From assembly GCA_945865815.1 (NCBI GenBank), contig CAMBFR010000003.1:1258-65257 (forward strand): a stretch of 64,000 nucleotides of DNA, in the 5' to 3' direction. The stretch comes from Candidatus Sulfopaludibacter sp. SbA3. Its GTDB lineage: Bacteria; Acidobacteriota; Terriglobia; 20CM-2-55-15. The notes under the pieces are model-generated. The model did no database searches. It saw only the letters and a program-made list of their open reading frames with translations, and was not told where the DNA came from. Of the stretch, positions 6,804 to 55,447 are shown piece after piece. Numbering within the stretch: position 1 is the stretch's first letter; each line of letters starts with the position of its first letter. Both the position numbers and the translations under genes were made by a program.

Positions 6804-8066
6804 CTAATCCGTATAACGCTTGAACAGCAGCGAGGCGTTCGTTCCGCCGAATCCAAAGGAGTTTGAAAGCGCATACTTGATGCTGGCCTTGCGCATTTGA
6901 TTCGGCGTGTAATCCAGATCGCAATCGGGATCGGGGGTGTCGTAGTTAATGGTCGGGGGTATGACGCCGCGTTCGATGGCTAGTACCGTGATTCCGGCTT
7001 CCACCGCGCCCGCCGCGCCAAGCAGGTGCCCAACCATCGATTTTGTCGAGCTGATTGAGAGCTTGCGGGCGTGTTCGCCGAACAGGCGCTTTATCGCATG
7101 GGTTTCGATGCGATCGTTGGGCGGAGTCGACGTGCCGTGCGCGTTGATATAGTCCACCTCTTCAGGTTTGATTCCCGCATCCGTAATTGCGTTCAACATG
7201 ACGCGCATGGCGCCGTGGCCGTCGTCTGGAGGGAGAGTGATGTGGTATGCGTCGCCGCTCATGCCATAGCCGACGAGTTCGGCGAGGATGGTCGCGCCCC
7301 GCTTCCTTGCCAACTCCAGTTCTTCAAGGATGACGACGCCTGCGCCTTCTCCGACGACAAATCCGTCGCGATCCTTGTCGAAGGGCCGGGACGCGCGCAA
7401 CGGTTCTTCGTTTCGAGTGGATAGAGCGCGCATCGCCGCAAAACCGCCGACGCCCATGGGAGTGATCGCTGCCTCGGAGCCTCCTGCGATCATTGCATCC
7501 GCGTCGCCGCGCGCGATCGCGCGGAACGCATCCCCGACTGCGTGCGCGCCCGATGAGCATGCCGTGCATGGCGCCGAGTTCGGGCCGCGGGCGCCGAACC
7601 GGATCGAAACCTGGCCAGCCGCAAGGTTGATGATGCTGGACGGAATAAAGAACGGGGATATCTTGCGCGGTCCGCCCTCGAGCAATGCCGTGTGCTCACG
7701 CTCGATTATCGCGAATCCACCAATTCCCGATCCGATGAATACTCCGGTCCGCTCCCGGAGTTCATCCGTAATCTGGAGGCCGGACTGCTTCATAGCAAAG
7801 TCCGCGGCTGCCACCGCGTAATGGATGAAGCTGTCCATCTTCTTGACGTCTTTCTTTTCGAACCATCGCAACGGATCGAAGTTTTTGACTTCAGCGGCAA
7901 TTCGCGTTGAAAACTGAGCCGTGTCGAAACGCGTGATGGCCGTAACGCCACTGCGCCCTTCACATAAACCCTTCCAGGTTTCCTCAGTTCCTGTTCCCAG
8001 CGCCGTAACCAGCCCGACGCCGGTAACGACGACTCTTCTCTTCTGCAATTCGTTAATTCCCTTCAC
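6804..8066 (-). CDS. fabF: beta-ketoacyl-ACP synthase II
   Basis: KAS II signature across the whole ORF: RRVVVTGVG, active-site Cys region [14 protein letters not shown], and His-His [15 protein letters not shown]. Confidence 0.9.
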
Positions 8067-8104
8067 GGCCGCAACGTAGCCTTAGGTCTCGCGCCAGCGC
8101 GCTG

Positions 8105-8350
8105 CTATGACTTGGGCAGGTGAGTCTCGATGTAACTGATCGCGTCCTTGACAGTGGTGATTTTCTCGGCATCTTCATCGGGAATCTCCATCCCGAATCC
8201 TTCTTCCAAAGCCATGACGAGTTCAACCGTATCGAGCGAATCCGCGCCAAGATCATCAATAAAGGAAGCGGTCGGAGTAACTTCCGATTCGTCCACCCCA
8301 AGCTGCTCGACGATGATCTGTTTAACCTTATCTTCGACTGAAGAAGCCAT
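8105..8350 (-). CDS. acpP: acyl carrier protein
   Basis: [50 protein letters not shown] carries the DSLD phosphopantetheine site. The ATG at 8350 follows GGAGGAG. Confidence 0.9.
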
Positions 8351-8415
8351 TCTTATCTCCTCCTGTTTTCTTGAACCAACACTGTGTCCGCTTATTCGCG
8401 GGAGCAAACCTGAAA

Positions 8416-9345
8416 TTATAGAAGTGCGCTTAACGTATTTTCCACCGAATTCTCGTCATCGGCATTGAGCATTGTAACCGACTTATCGACGCTGCGAATC
8501 AAGCCCAGCAAGACTTTTCCGGGACCGACTTCGACGAAGGCGCGAACGCCCTCGTCCAGCAGACGCTCGACGCTCTCCTGCCAGCGCACCGGACGCGACA
8601 CCTGGCGCTTCAAACCGCTGCGAGCCTCGCCTCCCGTTTGAATCGGCAGCGCGTCGACATTTGTGATCAACGGGCATCGAAGGTCCGCAAATTCGAGATT
8701 ATCCAGGTCGACGCTGAGGCGCTCCTCGGCCGGCTTCATCAGCGCACAATGGAATGGCGCGCTCACCGGTAATGGAATGGCGCGTTTGGCGCCCGCTTCC
8801 CTGGCCAGTATCATCGCGCGCTCGACGGCCTCCCGGTTCCCCGCAATCACAATCTGCCCGGAAGAGTTCATATTCGCCGGAGAAACCACCTGTCCTTCAG
8901 CGGCGCGCTCGCAAACGGACTGCACCCCAGCCAGGTCCAACCCGAGCAACGCGGCCATGGCGCCCACGCCAACCGGAACCGCTTCCTGCATGTAACGTCC
9001 CCGCCGCCGCACGAGCCCGGCTGCATCGCCCAGCCTCAGGGATCCTGCGGCAACCAGAGCCGAATACTCGCCGAGGCTGTGACCCGCAACGAAGTCCGGC
9101 CGGATTCCACGCTCTTCCAGAATGCGAAACACGGCAATCGATGTCGCAAGAATCGCGGGCTGCGTATTCTCGGTGAGCTTCAGATCCTCTTCCGGACCTT
9201 CAAAACAAAGACGGGAAATCCCAAAATTCAAAGCGCGGTCGGCTTCTTCGAAGGCGGCCCGGGCAACGGGATACTTTTCCGCTATCGCCCGGCCCATACC
9301 GGCATGCTGGGATCCCTGGCCGGGAAAGACGAATGCAATTTTCAT
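8416..9345 (-). CDS. fabD: malonyl-CoA:ACP transacylase
   Basis: [18 protein letters not shown] with the [10 protein letters not shown] active-site motif. Confidence 0.9.
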
Positions 9346-42674: not shown

Positions 42675-43049
42675 ATGGCGGACCGCTCGGAAACCAAAGA
42701 AAAATGGCCCTCATACACGATGGTCGATCCGCGAATGCGGAAGATTTATTTTCAGTTCTACCAGGAAACCTACAAGTCCTCTCATCTTGATCGAAAAACG
42801 AAGGAACTGATTGCGATTGCCGCATCAATGGCAACGCACTGTAAAGGATGCCTGGAAGGACATATCAAGAAGGCCCTGAAATACGGCGCCACCAAAGAAG
42901 AGCTTAGTGAAACCATCGCAATAACCATGGGCGTAGGCGCCGCTGCCATGGTGGACCTAACCGACATCGCAGCGGAAAACCTGAGGATCCGGCACTTCGA
43001 TGGCACTCGTGCTCCGGAGGAACCGCGGGAAGTTTCGCCGGAGGACTAA
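42675..43049 (+). CDS. carboxymuconolactone decarboxylase (AhpD-like) family protein
   Basis: AhpD-like CxxxH motif within THCKGCLEGHIK, in a 4-helix CMD fold. The protein is 124 aa. Confidence 0.7.
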   Translation: MADRSETKEKWPSYTMVDPRMRKIYFQFYQETYKSSHLDRKTKELIAIAASMATHCKGCLEGHIKKALKYGATKEELSETIAITMGVGAAAMVDLTDIAAENLRIRHFDGTRAPEEPREVSPED

Positions 43050-43050
43050 C

Positions 43051-43992
43051 ATGCCTCGTCGACTGCTTCGACTTCTCGTACTTTCTGCATTACTGGCCTG
43101 CACGCTCGAACTGATCGCTCAGCGCGGCGCGCCCGGCCAGCAAGGACAGCAAGGCCAACAGCAGCGCGACGCCATCCCACCCGGATCGCGCGTCGAGTAC
43201 AAGACATTTCAAAGCAAGCTGCTTGCCCGCGAACTCCGGTACGCGATCTACCTGCCTAAGTCCTACGCGGCCTCGAATACCAGGTATCCCATCGTCTACT
43301 TCCTGCACGGACTTCAGGAAAACGAGATGCGATGGAGCACCCGCGGTCGGGCCGACTTGATGCTCGACAGCATGGTGAGCGAAGGCAGGATCGGCGAATT
43401 CATCGTTGCGATTCCGTTTGGCGCCACCAGTTTCTATACCAACACCCGCGACGGCAGCGAGCCGTGGGAGGACATGGTAATCAAGGAGTTCATTCCGCTG
43501 ATCGAGACGTCTTATCGCGTGAACAACACGCGGCAGAATCGCGGAATCAGCGGAATTTCCATGGGAGGTTACGGAGCACTGAAAATTGCCCTGAAAAATC
43601 CCGACATGTTCGGCGCCGTCAGCGCCCACAGCCCCGCGCTCATCGAGGATTTTTCCACCACGAATGTCGCGGGACGGCGTCTTCAGATGTTCGAAGCGCT
43701 TTTCGACAGGATCTACGGCATGAAGCAGGACCTTGCCTACTGGGACCAGAACAACCCGCTCACTCTCATCCGGAATACAGGCCGCCTCAACGGACTGAAG
43801 ATCTACGTCGATTGCGGCACCGAGGACGAGTACGGCTTTTATCTCGGAGCGAAAACGCTCGACGACATCCTGACCAAAGCGTCCTACGCTCATGAGGTTC
43901 ATCTTTATCCCGGTAATCACGGCTGGGACTATGCCGCGCGGCACGTACCCGAATCGCTGCAGTTTCACTGGCGGGCATTCAGGGGGCTGTAG
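43051..43992 (+). CDS. secreted putative esterase (esterase D / enterochelin-esterase-like alpha/beta hydrolase)
   Basis: Signal peptide MPRRLLRLLVLSALLA. YPIVYFLHG and nucleophile-elbow GISMGG motifs. GGAGGA lies before the ATG at 43051. A Gln-Gly microrepeat (GQQGQQGQQQ) follows the signal peptide. Confidence 0.75.
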   Translation: MPRRLLRLLVLSALLACTLELIAQRGAPGQQGQQGQQQRDAIPPGSRVEYKTFQSKLLARELRYAIYLPKSYAASNTRYPIVYFLHGLQENEMRWSTRGRADLMLDSMVSEGRIGEFIVAIPFGATSFYTNTRDGSEPWEDMVIKEFIPLIETSYRVNNTRQNRGISGISMGGYGALKIALKNPDMFGAVSAHSPALIEDFSTTNVAGRRLQMFEALFDRIYGMKQDLAYWDQNNPLTLIRNTGRLNGLKIYVDCGTEDEYGFYLGAKTLDDILTKASYAHEVHLYPGNHGWDYAARHVPESLQFHWRAFRGL

Positions 43993-44012: not shown

Positions 44013-45131
44013 ATGGAGTTCCTCTTCCAGTCTATTCAATACAACAAGTCGTCCTTCCTCGAACAGTCGTTACCCGCAATTCCAAAACACTCCGGCATCT
44101 ACAGAATCTTCGATCTTCGCGGCAAGCTGATCGTTCTCGATAAGACCAGCAACCTCCACAACCGCCTGGAACGGTTTTACGGACCGCGTTCCGAATTGTT
44201 GCGCGACCTGGACCTGCGGGAGATCACCGGGCACATGGAATTCATCCGAACAGATTCCACTTTTGAAACCCTGTACCTGCTCTATCTGGAACGGCGGCGG
44301 CTGTTCCCGAAAACGTATCGCAAGATGCGGACGTTCCGGCTGTTTCCGCTCATGAAAATCAATCGCAGGCAGCGGTTTCCCCGTATCTATTCCAGCCGGC
44401 AAATCAAGAACGGCGTCGACTATTTCGGGCCATTTGTCACACGCGGGCAGTTCTCCCGGCTGAAAACCGCTCTCGAGCGCACGTTCAAATTGCGCCCCTG
44501 CCTTTACAACATCCGTGGAAACGATCCGCACGCCGACTGCATGTACTTCCAGATGCGAACGTGCTCACGTCCGTGCAACAACGACCTCGACCGGCGCGCC
44601 TACCTGGAGGACGTGGACCAGGCGATCGCCTTCATTCGGGGCGGCGATGAAGAAATCGAAAGATCGCTTCTCGAACAGATGAGTTCCCTCTCGGCGGAAA
44701 TGAAATTCGAAGAGGCAGAGCTCCTGCGCCGAAGGCTGGACAGGATTCAACGCGCACGGCAGGACGCCAAAGACACATTCTTTTCGATCTGGAATTTCAA
44801 CTACCTGGCGGTATTGCCATCGGACTCTGTTTCGCGCTGCAGAATCGCTTTCGTGCGGGAGGGGAGCATCGTCGCATTCCAGCAATACGATATCGAGTCG
44901 CTGAAGGATTTGCTCAGTCCGGACCTTCAACGATTCTATGATTCCTCAACGCTCACAATTTCGCGCGAATACCAGTACGACGAATTTTGCCTGGTCTGTA
45001 ATTTCATCGTAGACCCGTTGCAAACGGTCGAACTGATCCCCTTTCGCGGCCACGAAGATATGCCCGAAGCCGTGATCACGCGAATACAGCAGAAGCGGCG
45101 AAAGCGAAACAGCTCAGTGCCGCCCGTTTAA
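44013..45131 (+). CDS. UvrC N-terminal-half homolog: GIY-YIG nuclease + Cys4 + UVR domain, without the UvrC RNase H-like and HhH domains
   Basis: Collinear with E. coli UvrC residues ~15-250: SGIYRIFDLRGKLIVLDKTSNLHNRLERFY (GIY-YIG), VDYFGPF...FKLRPC...ADCMYFQMRTCSRPC (Cys-rich), EDVDQAIAFIRGGDEEIERSLLEQMSSLSAEMKFEEAELLRRRLDRIQRA (UVR). The C-terminal ~120 aa are unrelated to UvrC. Confidence 0.6.
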   Translation: MEFLFQSIQYNKSSFLEQSLPAIPKHSGIYRIFDLRGKLIVLDKTSNLHNRLERFYGPRSELLRDLDLREITGHMEFIRTDSTFETLYLLYLERRRLFPKTYRKMRTFRLFPLMKINRRQRFPRIYSSRQIKNGVDYFGPFVTRGQFSRLKTALERTFKLRPCLYNIRGNDPHADCMYFQMRTCSRPCNNDLDRRAYLEDVDQAIAFIRGGDEEIERSLLEQMSSLSAEMKFEEAELLRRRLDRIQRARQDAKDTFFSIWNFNYLAVLPSDSVSRCRIAFVREGSIVAFQQYDIESLKDLLSPDLQRFYDSSTLTISREYQYDEFCLVCNFIVDPLQTVELIPFRGHEDMPEAVITRIQQKRRKRNSSVPPV

Positions 45132-45371
45132 TTTGTGCTGGGAAATTTTGCGATTGAGAGTGTTGCGATGCATCCCAAGGACTTTTGCCGCCTTGGTTTG
45201 ATTTCCGCCTGTCCTGGCGAGCGCGTTCTGTATGAATTTTTTCTCGAACTCATTGACCGCCTCCCCCAAAAAGATCCGGCGTTCAATCATTTCTATAACG
45301 AGGGATTCCAGCTTTTCTTTCACTTCTGATCCTTGCTTGCGTTTCTTACGTTTCTCGCCACCATTGCTCAA
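45114..45371 (-). CDS. small Fis/NtrC-C-terminal-type HTH DNA-binding protein
   Basis: C-terminus FIQNALARTGGNQTKAAKVLGMHRNTLNRKI is a classic HTH_8 (Fis-type) motif. Its 5' end overlaps the cvpA 3' end, so the real start may be the internal Met near 45290. Confidence 0.5.
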   Translation of the reverse strand: MSNGGEKRKKRKQGSEVKEKLESLVIEMIERRIFLGEAVNEFEKKFIQNALARTGGNQTKAAKVLGMHRNTLNRKISQHKLNGRH

Positions 45372-46897: not shown

Positions 46898-49800
46898 CTA
46901 ATTCAGCCGCACGGAAACAATCTTCGATATTCCGGGTTCTTCCATCGTGACGCCGTAAAGCGCTGAAGCGGTCTCCATTGTACGCTTGCTGTGTGTGATC
47001 ACGATGAACTGCGTGCTCTGGCTCATGCTGCGCACCATGTTCGCAAAGCGATCCACGTTGGCATCGTCGAGCGGCGCATCCACTTCGTCGAGGATGCAGA
47101 ACGGGCTGGGCTTGTAACGGAACAGCGCAATCAGCAGCGCCAGCGCGGTGAGGGCTTTTTCGCCGCCGGAGAGCAACAGCACGTTCTGCAGCTTCTTTCC
47201 CGGAGGCTGCGCCACAATCTCCACTCCCGCATCCGGGTCGGCTGCTTCGTCAAGCAGCCTCAATTCCCCGTGGCCTCCGCCGAACAGCGAAACGAACGAT
47301 TCCTGGAATCCGAGGTTTATCGCCTCGAATGCCTCCTTGAACTGGCGGCGGCATACCGCATCGATTTCCTCGATCGCCTGCGCGGTATCGCGAATCGAAT
47401 CGAGCAGGTCCTGCCGTTGCGCCGTAAGGAAATCGAATCTTTGTTCCGCCTCCTGGTACTCTTCGACGGCCATCATGTTGACGGCTCCCATGGAATCAAT
47501 CTTCTCTCGAAGGTCGCGGTATTCCTGTTCGCGCGCTTCCAGCTCTTCAGGCGGCAGCGCCTGGAAAAACTCAATGCAAACCGATTCGATGGTTTCATTG
47601 AGCTCGCTGAGGCATAAGGCAGAGAGATGTTTGAGTTCGGAATCCACCTGGGTCTTTTCGATTTCGAGCTGATTGTGCCGGTCCTTCCAGGTGTCGAGCA
47701 GGCCGCGAGTTTCGTCCCACTTCGTTTCGGTCTCGTGAAGTTCGCGCCGCAGCTCTTCAAGGTGCGAGCCGGCTACGGCGATGGTCTCTGTCAGATGCTC
47801 ACGCTCCTGAACCAGCGCCTGGCGCGTCTCATCGAGTTCCGTAATGGTGGCCCGCATCTGGCTCTGCTGCTCGCCGGCTTGCGCGGTCTGGCGATCGGCG
47901 CGCGCGATGCGCTCATCGAGTTCCGCCTGACGCTGGCGAAGCGCGTTGATCTCACGCACCGCCGTGGATCTGCGTTCCTGCAGTACCGCCATGTTCGACT
48001 GATGCCCGGCCAGGTCGCGGGAGAGCGAGTCGGCCTCGATCCGCAGTTCCTCGTTCCGGCGCACTCTCGACTGAGTTTCCTGCTCGATGGCGGACTTCCG
48101 CGCCGCGATGGTCTCCAGTTCCAGGCCGGCATCAACGACGGACTTTTCGATATCCCGAAGCTCGGTCTTAAATCTCTGGATTTCCGCTGCCGCCAGCTTC
48201 CAGCGCTGCTCGGCCCGGCTGAAATCCGAGGCCAGCGCCTGAATTCGATGATCGCTGGAAAGGATGGCCTTCTCGGCATCCTGCAGTTCGACGAGGAGCC
48301 GGCCCTTGAGCGTTTCACTCTCTCTTACAAGTTCTTCGAGCCGCGCGACGTCGTCCTGCAACGCCACTGTTTCGCGCTGTGCCGCGGCCATGCGGCTATC
48401 CAGCTCGCGAATCTCCTTCCTCAGTGAAAGAGGACCGTGAGCCTCGTGCTCTCCCCAGCCGATGACGTGGCCGCGAACCACTTCTCCGGTACGGGCAAGG
48501 AAGACATACCTTGGATATTTTTCAGAAAGACTCCATGCCGTATCCACGGAATCGACGATATAGGCATCGCTCACGTGTTCGGCAAAATGCCGGACGCGCT
48601 CGTCGAGCCGCAGTACCGAACCGAGCGGAACCGCCCCGGTATCGGATGCAAGCGCCTCCGGCGGAGTGGGAGCCGTGTGGCCGTTCATGACCAGGCACTC
48701 CAGTCGTCCCTTCGTCACATCCTTTGCAACGCCGAGCGCTGCCTGTGCTTTCGTGCGGTCCTGCACCACGACATACTGAAGCTCGCGCCGCAGATAATCT
48801 TCAACGAGAGCCTCGTAGCCCGGCTCCACTTCGACGAAGTCGGCGAGCAGGCCAAGGGGGGACCAGTCCGAGCCGCGCACGTGACTGAAGAACTGCTGGA
48901 CGGATTCGGTGCTGTATGCGCGCTGGACGGCAAGTTCGCCGATCGTCTGCAGGCGGTGCCGGATGCTGTCTTCGCGGGTCCGGGCCTCTGCGGCGGCCTT
49001 GACAGCTTCGGCATGCGCCGCCTTGTTCTGCGCAAACTGCCGCTCCGCGCTTTCCAGACTGGTCTTCAGTTGGATAAAGCCGGCCTGTTGGCCCGAGTTT
49101 TCCTCTCGCGCCGAATTCAGCTGCTGCTCCATCTCGCGCGCAGCGGCGGTGGCTTCGGCCTCCTCGCGTTCGAGCCGCTGAACCTGCGCCGCCAGACGGC
49201 TCATCATTTCCGTGCGGCTGGAAATCTCGTTTCGGATTCGCGCCTCGCGGCCAACAATTTCAAACTGCTGGTCGCGCAGGCCGGCGATCGCGACATCCTC
49301 GCCGCGCCGGTTGTCGGCAACCACAACAGCAGCGGCCGTGGTTTGCTCGATAGACAGCTCTACGGCGCGCCTGGCGCCTTCCAGTTCGGCCAATTGAGTG
49401 GTCCGGACGTCATATTCCTGCTTCTGCCGGGCCAGGTCCTCGACGGCAATTCTCTTCTCCTCCGCCAGCACCTGTTTGCGTTCTTCCAGCGACCGGATCT
49501 GATCCTGCAACCGTTCGATTCGCTGGACGGCCTTCTCGTGTTCGAGTTCCACTTCGGAATGGCGATCGCGCGCTTCCGAAAGCACACGCTCCTGGTTCTC
49601 GAGATCGGCGCGGTGACGGCGGACCAGCGTTCCCAACCGGTCAATTTCGAGCTCGAGCCGTTTCCCTTCGTCTCCGATCGCGCCCAACGCAAGTTCGACA
49701 TTCTCCTGCTGGTTGATCATCATTTCGGCTTGAGTGGAAAACACGGAGGAAAGGATTTCCCTCATCCGGTTACGCAGCTCGATGAAACGCCGCGCTTTCC

Positions 49801-50500
49801 CTGCCTGGCGTTTGAGCGAATTCCGCTGCCGGTCGACTTCGGCCAGAATGTCGTTCACGCGCGACAGGTTCAGCCTTGCCGCTTCCAGCCTCGACTCGGC
49901 GAGCTTTCGCTTCGCTTTAAATTTGGTGATTCCCGCGGCTTCTTCAATGAGAGTGCGGCGATCGTGAGGCTTGGAGCTGAGCAATTGCCCCACGCGGCCC
50001 TGCTCGATGATGGCGTAGCTGTTGGGCCCCAGCCCCGTGCCCAGGAAGATTTCCTGAATATCGCGAAGCCGGCAGGGCCTGCCGTCGATGAGGTAAATAC
50101 TTTCGCCCGACCGATAGAGGCGGCGCTGAACGACAATGTCGCGAGGACCGTGCCCGTTCCCATTGGCCGCGCCATTGCCGTTGCCGTTGCCATTGCCGTT
50201 CCCATTCCCATTCCCGTTCGAGTGCTCGGGCTCGGTTTCGGTGAGTGTGATCGTCACCTGGGCCATTCCCATCGGAGCGCGGCTTCGCGTCCCATTGAAG
50301 ATGACGTCTTCCATTTTCTCGCCGCGCAGCGACTTCGCGCTTTGCTCGCCCAGAACCCAGGCAATGGCGTCGGAAACATTGCTCTTGCCGCACCCATTCG
50401 GGCCGACAATAGCGGTCACGCCGTTCTCATTTATAAGGATGTCGCCTTTATCGGAGAAGGACTTGAACCCGATCATCTCGATTCTTCGCAGTTTCAACAC
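46898..50500 (-). CDS. smc: chromosome segregation protein SMC
   Basis: Walker A GPNGCGKSN at the N-terminus. Long coiled coils. Hinge region. C-terminal signature LSGGEKALTALALLIALF plus Walker B ILDEVDAPLD. It carries an (NG)n low-complexity insertion at about aa 95-122. Confidence 0.9.
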   Translation of the reverse strand: MLKLRRIEMIGFKSFSDKGDILINENGVTAIVGPNGCGKSNVSDAIAWVLGEQSAKSLRGEKMEDVIFNGTRSRAPMGMAQVTITLTETEPEHSNGNGNGNGNGNGNGNGAANGNGHGPRDIVVQRRLYRSGESIYLIDGRPCRLRDIQEIFLGTGLGPNSYAIIEQGRVGQLLSSKPHDRRTLIEEAAGITKFKAKRKLAESRLEAARLNLSRVNDILAEVDRQRNSLKRQAGKARRFIELRNRMREILSSVFSTQAEMMINQQENVELALGAIGDEGKRLELEIDRLGTLVRRHRADLENQERVLSEARDRHSEVELEHEKAVQRIERLQDQIRSLEERKQVLAEEKRIAVEDLARQKQEYDVRTTQLAELEGARRAVELSIEQTTAAAVVVADNRRGEDVAIAGLRDQQFEIVGREARIRNEISSRTEMMSRLAAQVQRLEREEAEATAAAREMEQQLNSAREENSGQQAGFIQLKTSLESAERQFAQNKAAHAEAVKAAAEARTREDSIRHRLQTIGELAVQRAYSTESVQQFFSHVRGSDWSPLGLLADFVEVEPGYEALVEDYLRRELQYVVVQDRTKAQAALGVAKDVTKGRLECLVMNGHTAPTPPEALASDTGAVPLGSVLRLDERVRHFAEHVSDAYIVDSVDTAWSLSEKYPRYVFLARTGEVVRGHVIGWGEHEAHGPLSLRKEIRELDSRMAAAQRETVALQDDVARLEELVRESETLKGRLLVELQDAEKAILSSDHRIQALASDFSRAEQRWKLAAAEIQRFKTELRDIEKSVVDAGLELETIAARKSAIEQETQSRVRRNEELRIEADSLSRDLAGHQSNMAVLQERRSTAVREINALRQRQAELDERIARADRQTAQAGEQQSQMRATITELDETRQALVQEREHLTETIAVAGSHLEELRRELHETETKWDETRGLLDTWKDRHNQLEIEKTQVDSELKHLSALCLSELNETIESVCIEFFQALPPEELEAREQEYRDLREKIDSMGAVNMMAVEEYQEAEQRFDFLTAQRQDLLDSIRDTAQAIEEIDAVCRRQFKEAFEAINLGFQESFVSLFGGGHGELRLLDEAADPDAGVEIVAQPPGKKLQNVLLLSGGEKALTALALLIALFRYKPSPFCILDEVDAPLDDANVDRFANMVRSMSQSTQFIVITHSKRTMETASALYGVTMEEPGISKIVSVRLN
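50150..50225. repeat. imperfect hexanucleotide tandem repeat (GCCRTT/CCCATT)n inside smc, encoding NGNGNGNGNGNGNGNGAANGNGHG
   Basis: Plus strand reads ...GCCATTGGCCGCGCCATTGCCGTTGCCGTTGCCATTGCCGTTCCCATTCCCATTCCCGTTCGAG... It is in-frame within the SMC head domain. Confidence 0.7.
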
Positions 50501-52356: not shown

Positions 52357-52806
52357 ATGAAGATTTCCGCCAAGGACGAGTATGCCTGTTCCGCCGTTCT
52401 GGAACTGGCGCTGAACTACGACGGCGACACGCCGGTTCGAGTGCAGGACATTGCCAAACGCCAGGGGATACCGATCAAATTCCTGTTTCAGATCATGCAG
52501 ATTCTAAAACGCGTCGATATCGTCCGCAGCAGACGCGGAACCGAAGGAGGATACGTGCTGGCCCGGCAACCAAACCAGATTGCCGTCGGCGAAGTCATCC
52601 AGGCGATCAGCGGGCCGTTCGTCCAGCTTTCGTGTCTCGATTCGGGAAGTTTCAAGGACAACTGCGAGCGGGAAAGCATGTGCCACTTCAAACCGATCTG
52701 GGCCGACGTGGACCGCGCCATCGCGTCCGTCCTCAATAACGTGACGTTCGAAGACCTGGTCCGGCGGGCACAGGCCAATCAACGCCAGTTGATGTATCAC
52801 ATATAA
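52357..52806 (+). CDS. Rrf2-family transcriptional regulator (three-Cys, likely Fe-S-binding, IscR/NsrR-like)
   Basis: MKISAKDEYACSAVLELAL... winged HTH, with CLDSGSFKDNCERESMC cysteines. The ATG at 52357 was verified. Confidence 0.8.
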   Translation: MKISAKDEYACSAVLELALNYDGDTPVRVQDIAKRQGIPIKFLFQIMQILKRVDIVRSRRGTEGGYVLARQPNQIAVGEVIQAISGPFVQLSCLDSGSFKDNCERESMCHFKPIWADVDRAIASVLNNVTFEDLVRRAQANQRQLMYHI

Positions 52807-52810
52807 GCAA

Positions 52811-55447
52811 ATGAGGTTCATCCTCCACATCGACATGGACGCGTTCTACGCGTCGATCGAGCAAATCGATCATCCGGAGTACAAGGGGAAACCGGTGATT
52901 GTCGGCGGGGACCCGAAGAACGGCACGGGCCGGGGCGTCGTTGCGGCGTGTTCCTACGAGGCGAGGAAGTTCGGGGTGAGGTCGGCATTGCCCATCACGC
53001 GGGCCTGGCGCCTCTGCCCGGAAGGCGTTTATGTGCGGCCGAGGATGGAACGGTACGTTGAAGTCTCCCGCCAGGTGATGAGCGTTTTCCGCAAATATAC
53101 GGACCTCGTGGAACCCCTCAGCATCGACGAAGCGTTTCTCGATATCACCGGTTCCATCGCCCTCTTCGGTCCTCCGCAGGAAATTGCCCGATCGATAAAG
53201 AAAGAGATCCGCGAAACCACGGGCTTGACCGCCTCCACCGGAATCGCGCCGAACAAATTCCTGGCCAAAATTGCGTCCGACCTGAAGAAGCCCGACGGCT
53301 TCGTCATCGTTGAAGAAACGAACGTCGAGTCCTTCCTCCGGGACCTGCCGATCTCCAGGCTCTGGGGTGTCGGACCCAAAACCGAGCAGCGGCTTCAGCA
53401 GGAGGGCCTGCGGACTATCGGAGAAATTGCAGCCAGGCCGCGCGAATTGCTGGTGCGGATGCTTGGCGGGCTTGGCGAACATCTTTACCAGCTTTCCAGG
53501 GGCATTGACGACCGGCCCGTCGTTCCCAACTGGGAGCCCAAATCCATCAGCAGCGAAACCACTTTCGATGAGGACACCGGCGATCGCGAACTGCTTCTTC
53601 GCACGATCCTCGAACTTTCCGATCGTATTGCCGAACGGCTTCGCAAGGAGGGATACCGGGCGCGCAAAGTCACGCTGAAGCTCCGCTACTCCAGCTTCTC
53701 GACGCACACGAAACAGCGCTCGCTATCCAACCTCGCGCAGGACGGAAGTGAAATCGCCCGCGAAGCCCGCGACCTGTTCGGCCGGTTCCCTTTGGATGAA
53801 AAAATCCGGCTGATCGGCGTCAGCGCTGGCGATCTGCATCGCGATGGCGATAGCCCGCAGTTGGCGCTCTTCAACACCGAAGATCCCGCAGGCGCCGGAA
53901 CCCAACGGCTGGAGAAACTCGGCCACACCATGGATAACATCAAGGGCAAGTTCGGCGCCGGCTCAATGCGGCGAGGATCGGATCTGCTGAGCCTGGGTTT
54001 GCTCGTACTCTGCCTGGCGCTTGGCGCATGCGCGAAGCCCCAACCCGTGGCCGTTCAACCTCCACCACCTCCCATACCCGAAGACATTGTTCAGCAGGAG
54101 CAGGGCCTTCGGGCGCTTCACGAATTCACGCCGCAAGGCTACGGGCGGGCCATTCAGCATTTTGGCCGCGCCATCGAGCTTCAACCCGGCAACTGCGGCT
54201 ACAAGCTCATGTACGCGGAATCGAACCTCTTTCTGGCCCTGGAACAGAAACTGAACTACGAAGAATTTCGTCCGGCCTGGGAACGGGCGGCCGATCCGCT
54301 GTGCGCTCCCGAAAGCGCATTCGCGCTGCGCCTGGAGGTGTTTCGGTCGCTGGATGATTTCGGCCCGGTCCGCGACCGCACGGTCCTGAACAAGATTAAT
54401 CAGGCAATTCTTCTGGAGCCGGATGAGCCGCTGAACTGGTTCATCCGCTGGAAGCTCAATCCCACGACGAACCGGCAGGAGAATTCCATCCTGAAGGCCG
54501 CCGAGCTAAAGCCCGATCTCGCATTGATTCAATACGAGCTCGGAAATTATTTCCTTGTGAAGGGCGAGTATCCGGCAGCGCGGTCGGCGTTCGAGCGGGC
54601 GCTCGAACGGAGTCCCCGGCATTTCCGTTCGTACATCGGCCTGGCACAGGCAATATCCGCGCTGGACGAAGAACAGGACGTCACCCACCTGTATAAGCGC
54701 GCCGTCGAACTCGGCCCGGAATTCCTGGAAGGACGCATCCTTCTCGGAGACTACTACTTCGGACTCGAAGAACACGACCTGGCACGGGAGCAGTACGTTG
54801 CGGCGGTCGAGCAAAATCCGGGATATGAAGTCGCGCACCTCCGGCTGGGCCTCAGCTATCTTCAGAGCAACAGCCCTGATGGGCTTTCCGGGACTGCTGG
54901 GCTCGACAGGGCGGAAAGAGCGTTCAACACTGCCATCGCGATCAACCCCGCCAGCTACGAGGCGTATTACTACCGTGGCAATGTCTGGCTTGCCAGGGGC
55001 AATCTCGAAAAAGCGCGGGAGCAGTACGAGGAATCCCTGAAATACGTCCTGAACTTCCCAGACGCCGTATATGCCCTGGGCACCGTGCTGTTCCGGCAGG
55101 GGAAAATGGATCTTGCGCTCGACCAGTTCGAGAACATCCTTCGTCGAAACCGAAACCATGCCGACGCCTATTTTTCGCGCGCGGCCATCCGGTCGCAGCG
55201 GCGCCAGACCTCCGACGCCATCGAAGATTACACTCGCGCGCTGGCCCTGTATGACAGGCAACTGGTGGCGGCCATGGAATCGATTGTCGAGTTCGAGGAA
55301 CGGGAGTTGTTGAGAAAGGCCGAAGCGGAAAAGAGGAAGAAGGAACGGCTGGAGAGTAACATGCAGCGAGCTCGGCAATTAAAAATGAGACTCGAAGATC
55401 AGATCATGAGCGGCTGCGAATGCCAGCCCGATAGGGCGCAGCCATAA
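52811..55447 (+). CDS. dinB: DNA polymerase IV (DinB) whose reading frame continues without a stop into a hydrophobic/lipobox segment and a ~480-aa TPR-repeat domain
   Basis: N-terminal 390 aa are a complete DinB (MRFILHIDMDAFYASIEQ ... little finger ... canonical C-terminal ...IKGKFGAGSMRRGSDLL). The same frame then continues SLGLLVLCLALGACAKPQ..., followed by many TPR repeats up to 55447. Confidence 0.7.
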   Translation: MRFILHIDMDAFYASIEQIDHPEYKGKPVIVGGDPKNGTGRGVVAACSYEARKFGVRSALPITRAWRLCPEGVYVRPRMERYVEVSRQVMSVFRKYTDLVEPLSIDEAFLDITGSIALFGPPQEIARSIKKEIRETTGLTASTGIAPNKFLAKIASDLKKPDGFVIVEETNVESFLRDLPISRLWGVGPKTEQRLQQEGLRTIGEIAARPRELLVRMLGGLGEHLYQLSRGIDDRPVVPNWEPKSISSETTFDEDTGDRELLLRTILELSDRIAERLRKEGYRARKVTLKLRYSSFSTHTKQRSLSNLAQDGSEIAREARDLFGRFPLDEKIRLIGVSAGDLHRDGDSPQLALFNTEDPAGAGTQRLEKLGHTMDNIKGKFGAGSMRRGSDLLSLGLLVLCLALGACAKPQPVAVQPPPPPIPEDIVQQEQGLRALHEFTPQGYGRAIQHFGRAIELQPGNCGYKLMYAESNLFLALEQKLNYEEFRPAWERAADPLCAPESAFALRLEVFRSLDDFGPVRDRTVLNKINQAILLEPDEPLNWFIRWKLNPTTNRQENSILKAAELKPDLALIQYELGNYFLVKGEYPAARSAFERALERSPRHFRSYIGLAQAISALDEEQDVTHLYKRAVELGPEFLEGRILLGDYYFGLEEHDLAREQYVAAVEQNPGYEVAHLRLGLSYLQSNSPDGLSGTAGLDRAERAFNTAIAINPASYEAYYYRGNVWLARGNLEKAREQYEESLKYVLNFPDAVYALGTVLFRQGKMDLALDQFENILRRNRNHADAYFSRAAIRSQRRQTSDAIEDYTRALALYDRQLVAAMESIVEFEERELLRKAEAEKRKKERLESNMQRARQLKMRLEDQIMSGCECQPDRAQP
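53966..55447 (+). CDS. alternative interpretation: separate TPR-repeat lipoprotein starting at the internal ATG 53966
   Basis: MRRGSDLLSLGLLVLCLALGAC has signal-peptide shape with an L-A-L-G-A-C lipobox. Downstream are TPR repeats (AIQHFGRAIELQP..., YELGNYFLVKGEYPAARSAFERALERSP..., YYYRGNVWLARGNLEKAREQYEESLKY...). This start is in-frame inside the dinB ORF. Confidence 0.35.
   Translation: MRRGSDLLSLGLLVLCLALGACAKPQPVAVQPPPPPIPEDIVQQEQGLRALHEFTPQGYGRAIQHFGRAIELQPGNCGYKLMYAESNLFLALEQKLNYEEFRPAWERAADPLCAPESAFALRLEVFRSLDDFGPVRDRTVLNKINQAILLEPDEPLNWFIRWKLNPTTNRQENSILKAAELKPDLALIQYELGNYFLVKGEYPAARSAFERALERSPRHFRSYIGLAQAISALDEEQDVTHLYKRAVELGPEFLEGRILLGDYYFGLEEHDLAREQYVAAVEQNPGYEVAHLRLGLSYLQSNSPDGLSGTAGLDRAERAFNTAIAINPASYEAYYYRGNVWLARGNLEKAREQYEESLKYVLNFPDAVYALGTVLFRQGKMDLALDQFENILRRNRNHADAYFSRAAIRSQRRQTSDAIEDYTRALALYDRQLVAAMESIVEFEERELLRKAEAEKRKKERLESNMQRARQLKMRLEDQIMSGCECQPDRAQP

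Follow-up and report, generated by a model that had tools for sequence, protein, structure and literature searches.

The DNA considered here is a stretch of 64,000 nucleotides from contig CAMBFR010000003.1, called the window below, and the gene in question is an open reading frame (ORF) whose 372-residue product resembles the N-terminal half of the excinuclease subunit UvrC (UvrC-N). An earlier note on this DNA had described the product as a GIY-YIG nuclease domain, a four-cysteine region and a UvrB-interacting UVR helix joined to an unrelated C-terminus. It had taken the gene to encode either a Cho-like nuclease that makes only the 3′ incision or a degenerate UvrC. The ORF and the successive parts of its product are as follows.

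44013 to 45131, forward strand: the ORF (372 amino acids and a stop codon), encoding a paralogue of UvrC-N / class III Cho-like type.
44082 to 44327, forward strand: GIY-YIG-fold domain with a degenerate active site (residues 24-105), placed by alignment to a hidden Markov model (HMM), profile alignment to PDB entry 1yd6 and Foldseek.
44328 to 44438, forward strand: beta-sheet linker motif (residues 106-142) with invariant QRFPR and YFGP; model strands at 113-116, 125-128 and 136-139.
44439 to 44588, forward strand: helix alpha5 and Cys-rich motif (residues 143-192), the presumed [4Fe-4S] site, with C163, C176, C184 and C188.
44589 to 44768, forward strand: helical bundle with a UVR (UvrB-binding) hairpin (residues 193-252), placed by a sub-threshold Pfam UVR match, motif residues and model helices.
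44769 to 45050, forward strand: C-terminal domain (residues 253-346), related by sequence both to UvrC's central, non-catalytic "RNase H1" domain and to that at the C-terminus of DEDD-exonuclease/Cho-like fusions.
45051 to 45128, forward strand: variable C-terminal tail, placed by the family alignment, in which a basic patch is conserved (QQKRRKR; RLQQRKRKRK in the family consensus).

By sequence comparison, the N-terminal ~300 residues of the product are clearly homologous to UvrC. The NCBIfam uvrC model TIGR00194 aligns with residues 17-297 (E = 1.2e-37, profile positions 2-276 of 574) at 129.8 bits, below the curated cut-off of 285.45 for a UvrC equivalog, and with an HMM made from 74 canonical UvrCs the match (E = 2.8e-60) runs over HMM positions 6-312 of 615. 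Homology to canonical UvrC extends over ~315 N-terminal residues at 25-30% identity. The best end-to-end profile match is NF005906 / PRK07883 (DEDD exonuclease domain-containing protein), which pairs residues 16-352 with profile positions 205-546 of 563 (E = 6.9e-36), with a score of 123.7 that is far under the family cut-off of 495. All 13 NCBIfam matches at E ≤ 1 are UvrC or DEDD-exonuclease models, and no Cho-named family is among them. Annotation pipelines label the gene "excinuclease ABC subunit C" (JGI), which is misleading, or "hypothetical protein" (NCBI).

Canonical UvrCs and the DEDD fusions align collinearly with the product over the GIY-YIG domain, YFGP/Cys-rich region and UVR motif and for ~100 residues more, and the product stops where canonical UvrC goes on into its catalytic RNase H/EndoV domain. 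Neither the RNase H2/EndoV 5′-incision domain with its DDH triad nor the tandem helix-hairpin-helix motif, (HhH)2, was found in the 372-residue protein by alignment or with the full-length UvrC HMM. The description of a stand-alone UvrC N-terminal half without 5′-incision nuclease and HhH domains therefore holds. The C-terminal ~120 residues, in contrast, are not the unrelated sequence they had been taken for, since in the alignment their counterpart in UvrC is the stretch that follows the UVR motif and precedes the catalytic RNase H domain. The NF005906 match reaches into this region, and the isolated C-terminal profile, compared by hhalign, matches both the UvrC profile (E = 5.6e-6) and the DEDD fusions (108 columns, E = 6.5e-5). 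On these alignments the C-terminus is probably the central, naturally inactive "RNase H1"-type domain of UvrC, and the protein a UvrC-N that ends before the 5′-incision nuclease.

The AlphaFold2 model of the product has a predicted local distance difference test (pLDDT) of 88.6 and a predicted template modelling (TM) score of 0.86. From the N-terminus onward it shows a GIY-YIG alpha/beta domain and three short strands, then a Cys loop of low confidence, a run of helices (194-208, 212-228 and 232-251) and finally a beta-beta-beta-alpha-alpha-beta-alpha domain; a helical hairpin spans residues 212-251, and pLDDT falls below 60 after residue 360. The top PDB matches in Foldseek are the UvrC GIY-YIG domains 1yd6 and 1ycz (probability 0.96-1.0, target TM 0.63-0.74; for 1yd6, probability 1.0 and target TM 0.70-0.74), and a PDB profile search also matches 1yd6 (E = 3.5e-4), so that the GIY-YIG alpha/beta fold is recovered in both ways. 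The Pfam GIY-YIG model PF01541, on the other hand, has no match to the ORF at E ≤ 1 and hence none at its gathering threshold. A search of 5.8 billion proteins returned 564 relatives; among the best 120 (349-404 residues, 64-100% identity) PF27096 (UvrC_M), on which our literature search found no papers, is the only recurrent precomputed Pfam match and PF01541 is not listed, whereas acidobacterial UvrCs do list it. The assignment of a GIY-YIG domain made in the earlier note is thus upheld by UvrC-wide profiles and by fold, with PF01541 not matching.

Further modules of UvrC-N are represented at the sequence level. The three-stranded beta-sheet motif and the Cys motif CX6-14CX3(H/Q)X3CX3C have been defined for UvrC-N (PMC10085695), and C163, C176, C184 and C188 satisfy the latter; all four are present in 122/122 homologues, which bears out the four-Cys region as first described. 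The model has low pLDDT (56-57) at this motif, consistent with a site that needs a cofactor. The putative UVR hairpin is collinear with the UvrC UVR motif. F232 and R239 are the counterparts of F213 and R220, residues of the UvrB interface in Deinococcus radiodurans UvrC (DrUvrC; PMC10085695). F232, E233 and A235 are invariant in the same 122 sequences, and the position seven residues after the Phe is Arg in 81 and His in 36. The Pfam UVR model (PF02151) gives a sub-threshold match to residues 218-247 (12.9 bits against a cut-off of 21.5, E = 0.099), so that the UVR helix is supported by collinearity, motif residues and the predicted hairpin, and not by Pfam. The UvrB C-terminal domain was not detected by a family-profile search of PDB chain sequences.

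To score the catalytic residues, as had been proposed, we read the relevant columns from an hmmalign alignment of four groups of sequences to the HMM of 74 canonical UvrCs, using Thermotoga maritima numbering. The alignment is ungapped across the catalytic motifs, and an independent profile alignment to 1yd6 gives the identical mapping. At Y19, Y29, G31, K32, R39, E76 and N88, the ORF has Y30, V41, D43, K44, R51, L90 and Y102, respectively. Canonical UvrCs keep these residues in 74 of 74 sequences, apart from Y29 (73 of 74), and each is kept in 10/10 DEDD fusions. The ORF and its relatives, referred to here as the Terriglobia family (n = 122), differ as follows:

Y19: Tyr 119, Phe 3.
Y29: Val 120, Ile 1, Leu 1.
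G31: Asp 118, Glu 3, Ala 1.
K32: Lys 120, Arg 2.
R39: Arg 122.
E76: Leu 117, Glu 2.
N88: Tyr 121, Phe 1.

The second Tyr and the Asn had already been noticed as substituted; in addition, the metal-binding Glu and the Gly of the YIG motif are replaced. Three of the five members of the canonical catalytic set (Y19, Y29, R39, E76, N88) are therefore substituted in the ORF product, and a deep branch of the family (46-54% identity) additionally has Phe at Y19. Of these changes, loss of the Glu is more serious than those of the Tyr and Asn: it is a direct metal ligand in the one-metal GIY-YIG mechanism, and DrUvrC E72A, equivalent to E76, abolishes incision (PMC10085695). With Val in place of the general-base-side Tyr (Y29), Leu in place of the metal-binding Glu (E76) and Tyr in place of the Asn (N88), incision is unlikely, and by the canonical one-metal mechanism the product most likely cannot incise DNA. 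The doubt already voiced about nuclease activity is strengthened, and a nuclease confined to 3′ incision is unlikely for the family as a whole, in which the Glu survives in 2 of 122 members.

The distribution of this degenerate site is narrow. A HMMER scan that covered 1.84 billion cluster representatives exhaustively recovered a tight, isolated family whose full-length representatives lie at 49-55% identity. Below them comes a step in E-value from ~1e-110 to 1e-32, the level at which canonical UvrCs of ~600 residues start (24-31% identity), and the matches at E ~ 1e-32 include DEDD-fused proteins of ~560-590 residues and a second stand-alone family (P0153, P0222). In 185,579 species genomes, two exact peptide patterns located 21 loci, a number that is a lower bound, all in uncultured Acidobacteriota/Terriglobia and including metagenome-assembled genomes (MAGs) of Solibacteraceae; the closest is from Candidatus Sulfopaludibacter sp. 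SbA3 (88% identity). The same substitution pattern is present in 21/21 of these genomic members.

Loss of catalytic residues, truncation relative to UvrC and the missing Pfam GIY-YIG match would also be expected of a decaying uvrC remnant or an annotation artefact. The conservation data effectively refute this explanation, which the earlier suggestion of a degenerate uvrC had raised in part. In 21/21 species genomes the reading frame is uninterrupted (355-381 residues, 46-88% identity), synteny is conserved among them, 60 positions are invariant over 131 sequences, and the predicted fold is confident. Over the whole gene, the ratio of non-synonymous to synonymous substitution rates (dN/dS) against the SbA3 orthologue (locus L017) is 0.113, within a reported range of 0.09-0.12. 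By domain, dN/dS is lowest in the GIY-like domain (0.038), followed by the beta/Cys region (0.086), the C-terminal domain (0.119) and the UVR bundle (0.120). Column entropy is lowest, and conservation thus highest, in the Cys region (0.28 bits), followed by the beta motif (0.42), the GIY-like domain (0.59), the UVR bundle (1.30) and the C-terminal domain (1.35). Judged by these substitution patterns, the gene is functional and under strong purifying selection, and is not a uvrC in decay.

The second stand-alone family (P0153) has at least 120 members, 38-69% identical to P0153, in MAGs of Phycisphaerae/Planctomycetota, some of them near-complete chromosomes, and carries the NCBI name "UvrB/UvrC motif-containing protein". 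Two genes, each encoding ~390 residues, represent it:

8001 to 9185 of locus L027 (CP070691.1, Phycisphaerales): sister-family gene.
8001 to 9164 of locus L028 (CP070790.1): sister-family gene.

These proteins share with the Terriglobia family their length, their architecture, the derived motifs FET and P..YRK, and Tyr at the Asn88 position. They differ in their low identity to it (21-27%), their phylum, their gene neighbourhood and the further erosion of the site: Y29, K32, R39 and E76 are lost, three Cys remain, and positions 43, 44, 51 and 93 hold hydrophobic or small residues, leaving no charged residue in the site and none that is acidic near it. This further decay argues that a function shared by the two families needs no catalysis. 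In a neighbour-joining bootstrap tree (352 columns, 57 sequences, 200 replicates), the Terriglobia and Phycisphaerae families group in 200/200 replicates and are sister to the DEDD fusions in 155/200. The Terriglobia family groups with acidobacterial UvrC in 0/200, and a long branch carries it together with the Cho-like fusions. The sequence data describe a vertically inherited family restricted to Terriglobia that are all uncultured, and a sister family that belongs to Phycisphaerae; taken at face value, they would place a single loss of the active site long ago in a Cho-like lineage.

The alternative that we take most seriously, although we consider it unlikely, is a working Cho-like 3′-incision nuclease whose active site has been rewired. 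In such a scheme D/E43, perhaps with E93, would bind the metal instead of the residue at E76, Y102 or Y30 would serve as base, and K44 and R51 would hold the scissile phosphate. The residues around the old site are compatible with this: among 131 sequences, position 43 is Asp or Glu in 130, position 44 is Lys or Arg in 131, R51 is present in 131, Y102 in 130, and E93, one helical turn after the lost Glu, in 123. The swaps look reciprocal, as if an acidic residue and a Tyr had each been relocated rather than lost, and the GIY-like domain combines the lowest dN/dS with low entropy. The architecture itself can cut DNA, as isolated D. radiodurans UvrC-N incises (PMC10085695). Against rewiring, the candidate residues vary in places, with Phe replacing Y30 in the deep branch, Gln or Ala replacing E93 in 7 members and Ala replacing D43 in one, and the sister family shares Y102 and the architecture while filling positions 43, 44, 51 and 93 with hydrophobic or small residues. 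The helix Glu, moreover, is invariant in the 74 UvrCs and 10 DEDD fusions, and we know of no GIY-YIG nuclease that works without it.

We favour a different reading, in which the ORF encodes a UvrC-N paralogue with a degenerate site that is probably a non-catalytic iron-sulphur (FeS) protein and would bind UvrB and act as an accessory or regulatory factor in excision repair. Through its putative UVR hairpin (F232, R239) the product would dock on the UvrB C-terminal domain, and it may contact DNA by way of the phosphate-contacting Lys44 and Arg51, both still present, together with the FeS module and the basic tail. The product would then be a non-cutting subunit of nucleotide excision repair (NER) that modulates or scaffolds the process, for example by occupying or stabilising UvrB-DNA pre-incision complexes, or by competing with, or handing over to, canonical UvrC. 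Such a role would resemble that of dead-nuclease partners in eukaryotic repair such as ERCC1, the partner of XPF and a repair-nuclease paralogue that has lost catalytic residues and keeps the fold and the interaction modules. The likeness is one of mechanism and not of homology, since the ERCC4 fold of ERCC1 is unrelated to GIY-YIG.

Comparison with known systems shows which part of this is new. The earlier note had regarded GIY-YIG plus UVR without a C-terminal nuclease as an unusual architecture. It was in fact defined in 2006 by Dunin-Horkawicz, Feder and Bujnicki as "Cho-like" (C4-UvrBb without ExoIII, in one Gloeobacter protein), alongside a "Cho-like+Exo" form in Actinobacteria (PMC1564403), and in 2023 Seck et al. 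gave the matching architecture the name class III Cho (PMC10085695). The ORF product belongs with these by its GIY-YIG fold, C4 region, putative UvrB-binding domain and C-terminal domain and its lack of EndoV/HhH, and it also matches the D. radiodurans UvrC-N construct (PMC10085695). It departs from them in that class III Cho proteins were described as nucleases expected to act directly in NER (PMC10085695), whereas the site is substituted throughout the ORF family, which forms a separate, long-branched clade confined to uncultured Terriglobia. The DEDD fusions, which correspond to the "Cho-like+Exo" form and whose C-terminal domain is collinear with that of the ORF, have an N-terminal DnaQ-like exonuclease domain that the ORF lacks, and retain every GIY-YIG catalytic residue. 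Canonical UvrC (TIGR00194) shares the Cys-rich FeS motif, a UVR hairpin that is putative in the ORF product and, by alignment, the beginning of the RNase H1 domain, and differs in possessing RNase H2/EndoV, (HhH)2 and the catalytic GIY-YIG residues. Escherichia coli Cho (YdjQ; orthodox, or class II) is likewise a stand-alone homologue of the UvrC N-terminal half with a GIY-YIG fold and Cys motif, but orthodox Cho has an active GIY-YIG site, no UvrB-binding domain and a Cho-specific C-terminal domain of its own (PMC1564403). With its predicted UVR hairpin and a C-terminal domain of the UvrC/DEDD-fusion type, the ORF product is not an orthodox Cho. The architecture is thus already known, and the new point is a conserved clade in which it is catalytically degenerate; the literature that we searched held no description of inactive UvrC or Cho paralogues, or of a degenerate clade in Terriglobia and Phycisphaerae.

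A canonical UvrC is expected elsewhere in the genomes that carry the gene. The full-length UvrC HMM, run in six frames on the window and 26 related loci (457 kb in total), found no canonical uvrC and matched only the ORF gene. This result would also fit a gene that is the organism's only UvrC, either as a divergent but functional excinuclease or as one half of a split UvrC with its C-terminal half elsewhere; D. radiodurans UvrC-N and UvrC-C can indeed act in trans (PMC10085695). The 457 kb, however, make up only a minor part of these genomes. With an acidobacterial UvrC (P0269) as query, a search found at least 120 full-length UvrCs of 589-655 residues that carry PF01541, UvrC_M, RNase H and HhH domains, nearly all listing UVR as well, and that include several named Terriglobia, Terriglobales, Acidobacteriia or Acidobacteriaceae. 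Complete, all-domain UvrCs are standard in MAGs of Terriglobia, Terriglobales and Acidobacteriia, and the ORF family branches apart from the acidobacterial ones in the tree described above. That the ORF is the sole UvrC is very unlikely, because it has no 5′-incision domain at all and a degenerate 3′-incision site.

The gene is embedded in a conserved block of chromosomal genes, of which its nearest neighbours are the following.

42675 to 43049, forward strand: CMD-family protein (Pfam).
43000 or 43051 to 43992, forward strand: PF00756 esterase (Pfam), ending 20 bp before the ORF.
45114 to 45371, reverse strand: Fis-type helix-turn-helix (HTH) mini-protein (PF02954), 85 residues from a TTG start at 45371 or 69 residues from a GTG at codon 17.

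The syntenic order is nadA on the reverse strand; HDOD, GAF/histidine kinase/response regulator, CMD, esterase and ORF on the forward strand; a variable insert; Fis-HTH, cvpA, purC and smc, all on the reverse strand; and then Rrf2, dinB, peptidyl-prolyl isomerase and HAD genes. The order CMD-esterase-ORF is found in nearly all loci, with esterase-ORF gaps of 7-37 bp in many, and in the window the interval between the two has no promoter-like or terminator-like site, the scan giving nothing above background. Co-transcription of esterase and ORF is plausible. Gene order nevertheless says little about function, because the whole block is conserved among related genomes. Synteny is also not absolute, because two loci, L008 and L013 (CAZPBY010000069.1), differ: both have a UvrC-N-like gene without CMD-esterase upstream, and L013 is without any of the window's neighbour genes.

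Two other interpretations of the locus were set aside. A "formaldehyde repair" operon with the esterase and CMD genes was rejected, as the N-terminus of the esterase is signal-peptide-like and the whole nadA-to-HAD region is syntenic, so that gene order is uninformative. A mobile element or defence gene was rejected in view of the stable chromosomal synteny together with a PADLOC search, which found no defence-system match for the ORF. Separately, a 90%-identity protein cluster (P0016) mixes 372-residue UvrC-N-like proteins with 286-residue esterases named "S-formylglutathione hydrolase FrmB", which suggests that the esterase and UvrC-N ORFs are fused or read through in some genome, or else that the clustering produced an artefact.

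The Fis-type HTH mini-protein that had been noted beside the ORF is genuine (PF02954, 59.3 bits against a cut-off of 22, E = 3.1e-16); the adjacency is incidental. In the window and its closest relatives the two genes are convergent and overlap by 18 bp at their 3′ ends, an arrangement that could indicate a functional pair, with the HTH protein as a regulator of the ORF or as its DNA-binding partner. We regard such a pairing as highly improbable. Convergent genes are not co-transcribed, and 1-3.5 kb of other genes part the two in loci L004, L006, L007, L018 and L023-L025. The HTH gene was not detected in L019-L022 or L026, and the Phycisphaerae genes, whose neighbourhoods are unrelated to the Terriglobia one, have no such neighbour. 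Wherever it was detected, the HTH gene adjoins cvpA, including the loci where DNA has been inserted between it and the UvrC-N gene; a convergent smc-purC-cvpA cluster ends with it. The TTG start of the HTH gene overlaps cvpA, the GTG start corresponds to the 69-residue product called by other pipelines, and the extra N-terminal segment is rich in Lys and Arg.

Two other genes of the block have unusual features of their own. In the SMC protein (gene at 46898 to 50500, reverse strand), the N-terminal head region is interrupted at residues 95-116 by a low-complexity insert, (NG)8-AA-(NG)2 (window 50153 to 50218, reverse strand). The DinB/IMS Y-family polymerase (52811 to 55447, forward strand) has 878 residues with a long, TPR-rich C-terminal extension, whereas its syntenic orthologue in L004, a locus from a related MAG, is an ordinary DinB of 387 residues; an Rrf2 gene lies directly upstream in both (in the window at 52357 to 52806, forward strand).

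Several points weigh against a non-cutting accessory subunit. The polar residues kept or gained around the old site, and the position of the GIY-like domain as the most constrained part of the gene, fit a rewired site equally well. Docking on UvrB is read from motif retention only, the Pfam UVR match being sub-threshold, and the neighbourhood gives no repair-related clue. The presence of a canonical uvrC in the same genome as the family gene is an expectation, co-occurrence having been seen at the level of the class only. Finally, long-branch attraction could account for part of the support that joins the two degenerate families.

With these points in mind, we still consider an accessory or regulatory UvrC-N paralogue the probable nature of the ORF product, and a broader proposal may be made more tentatively. 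The usual account of bacterial NER names UvrA, UvrB and UvrC and, for some species, Cho as well. The Terriglobia and Phycisphaerae families might together constitute an old, previously undescribed clade of pseudo-nuclease UvrC-N proteins, a non-cutting fourth component of excision repair. This is a live possibility, though one that we hold with more doubt than belief; possible roles for such a component would include regulator of UvrB-DNA complexes, anti-incision factor, and redox or damage sensor.

The family amounts to a natural separation-of-function variant, in which the canonical catalytic residues have been lost while the two modules of UvrC that are least understood, the presumed FeS cluster and the putative UvrB-binding bundle, have been kept. 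It could therefore reveal what these modules do apart from cutting. If the protein should prove active, its GIY-YIG site would be one that functions although the canonical helix Glu is absent, which would be relevant to the mechanism of the superfamily. If it does not cut, it would suggest that NER has a regulatory or scaffolding layer in the abundant soil Acidobacteriota and in Phycisphaerae.

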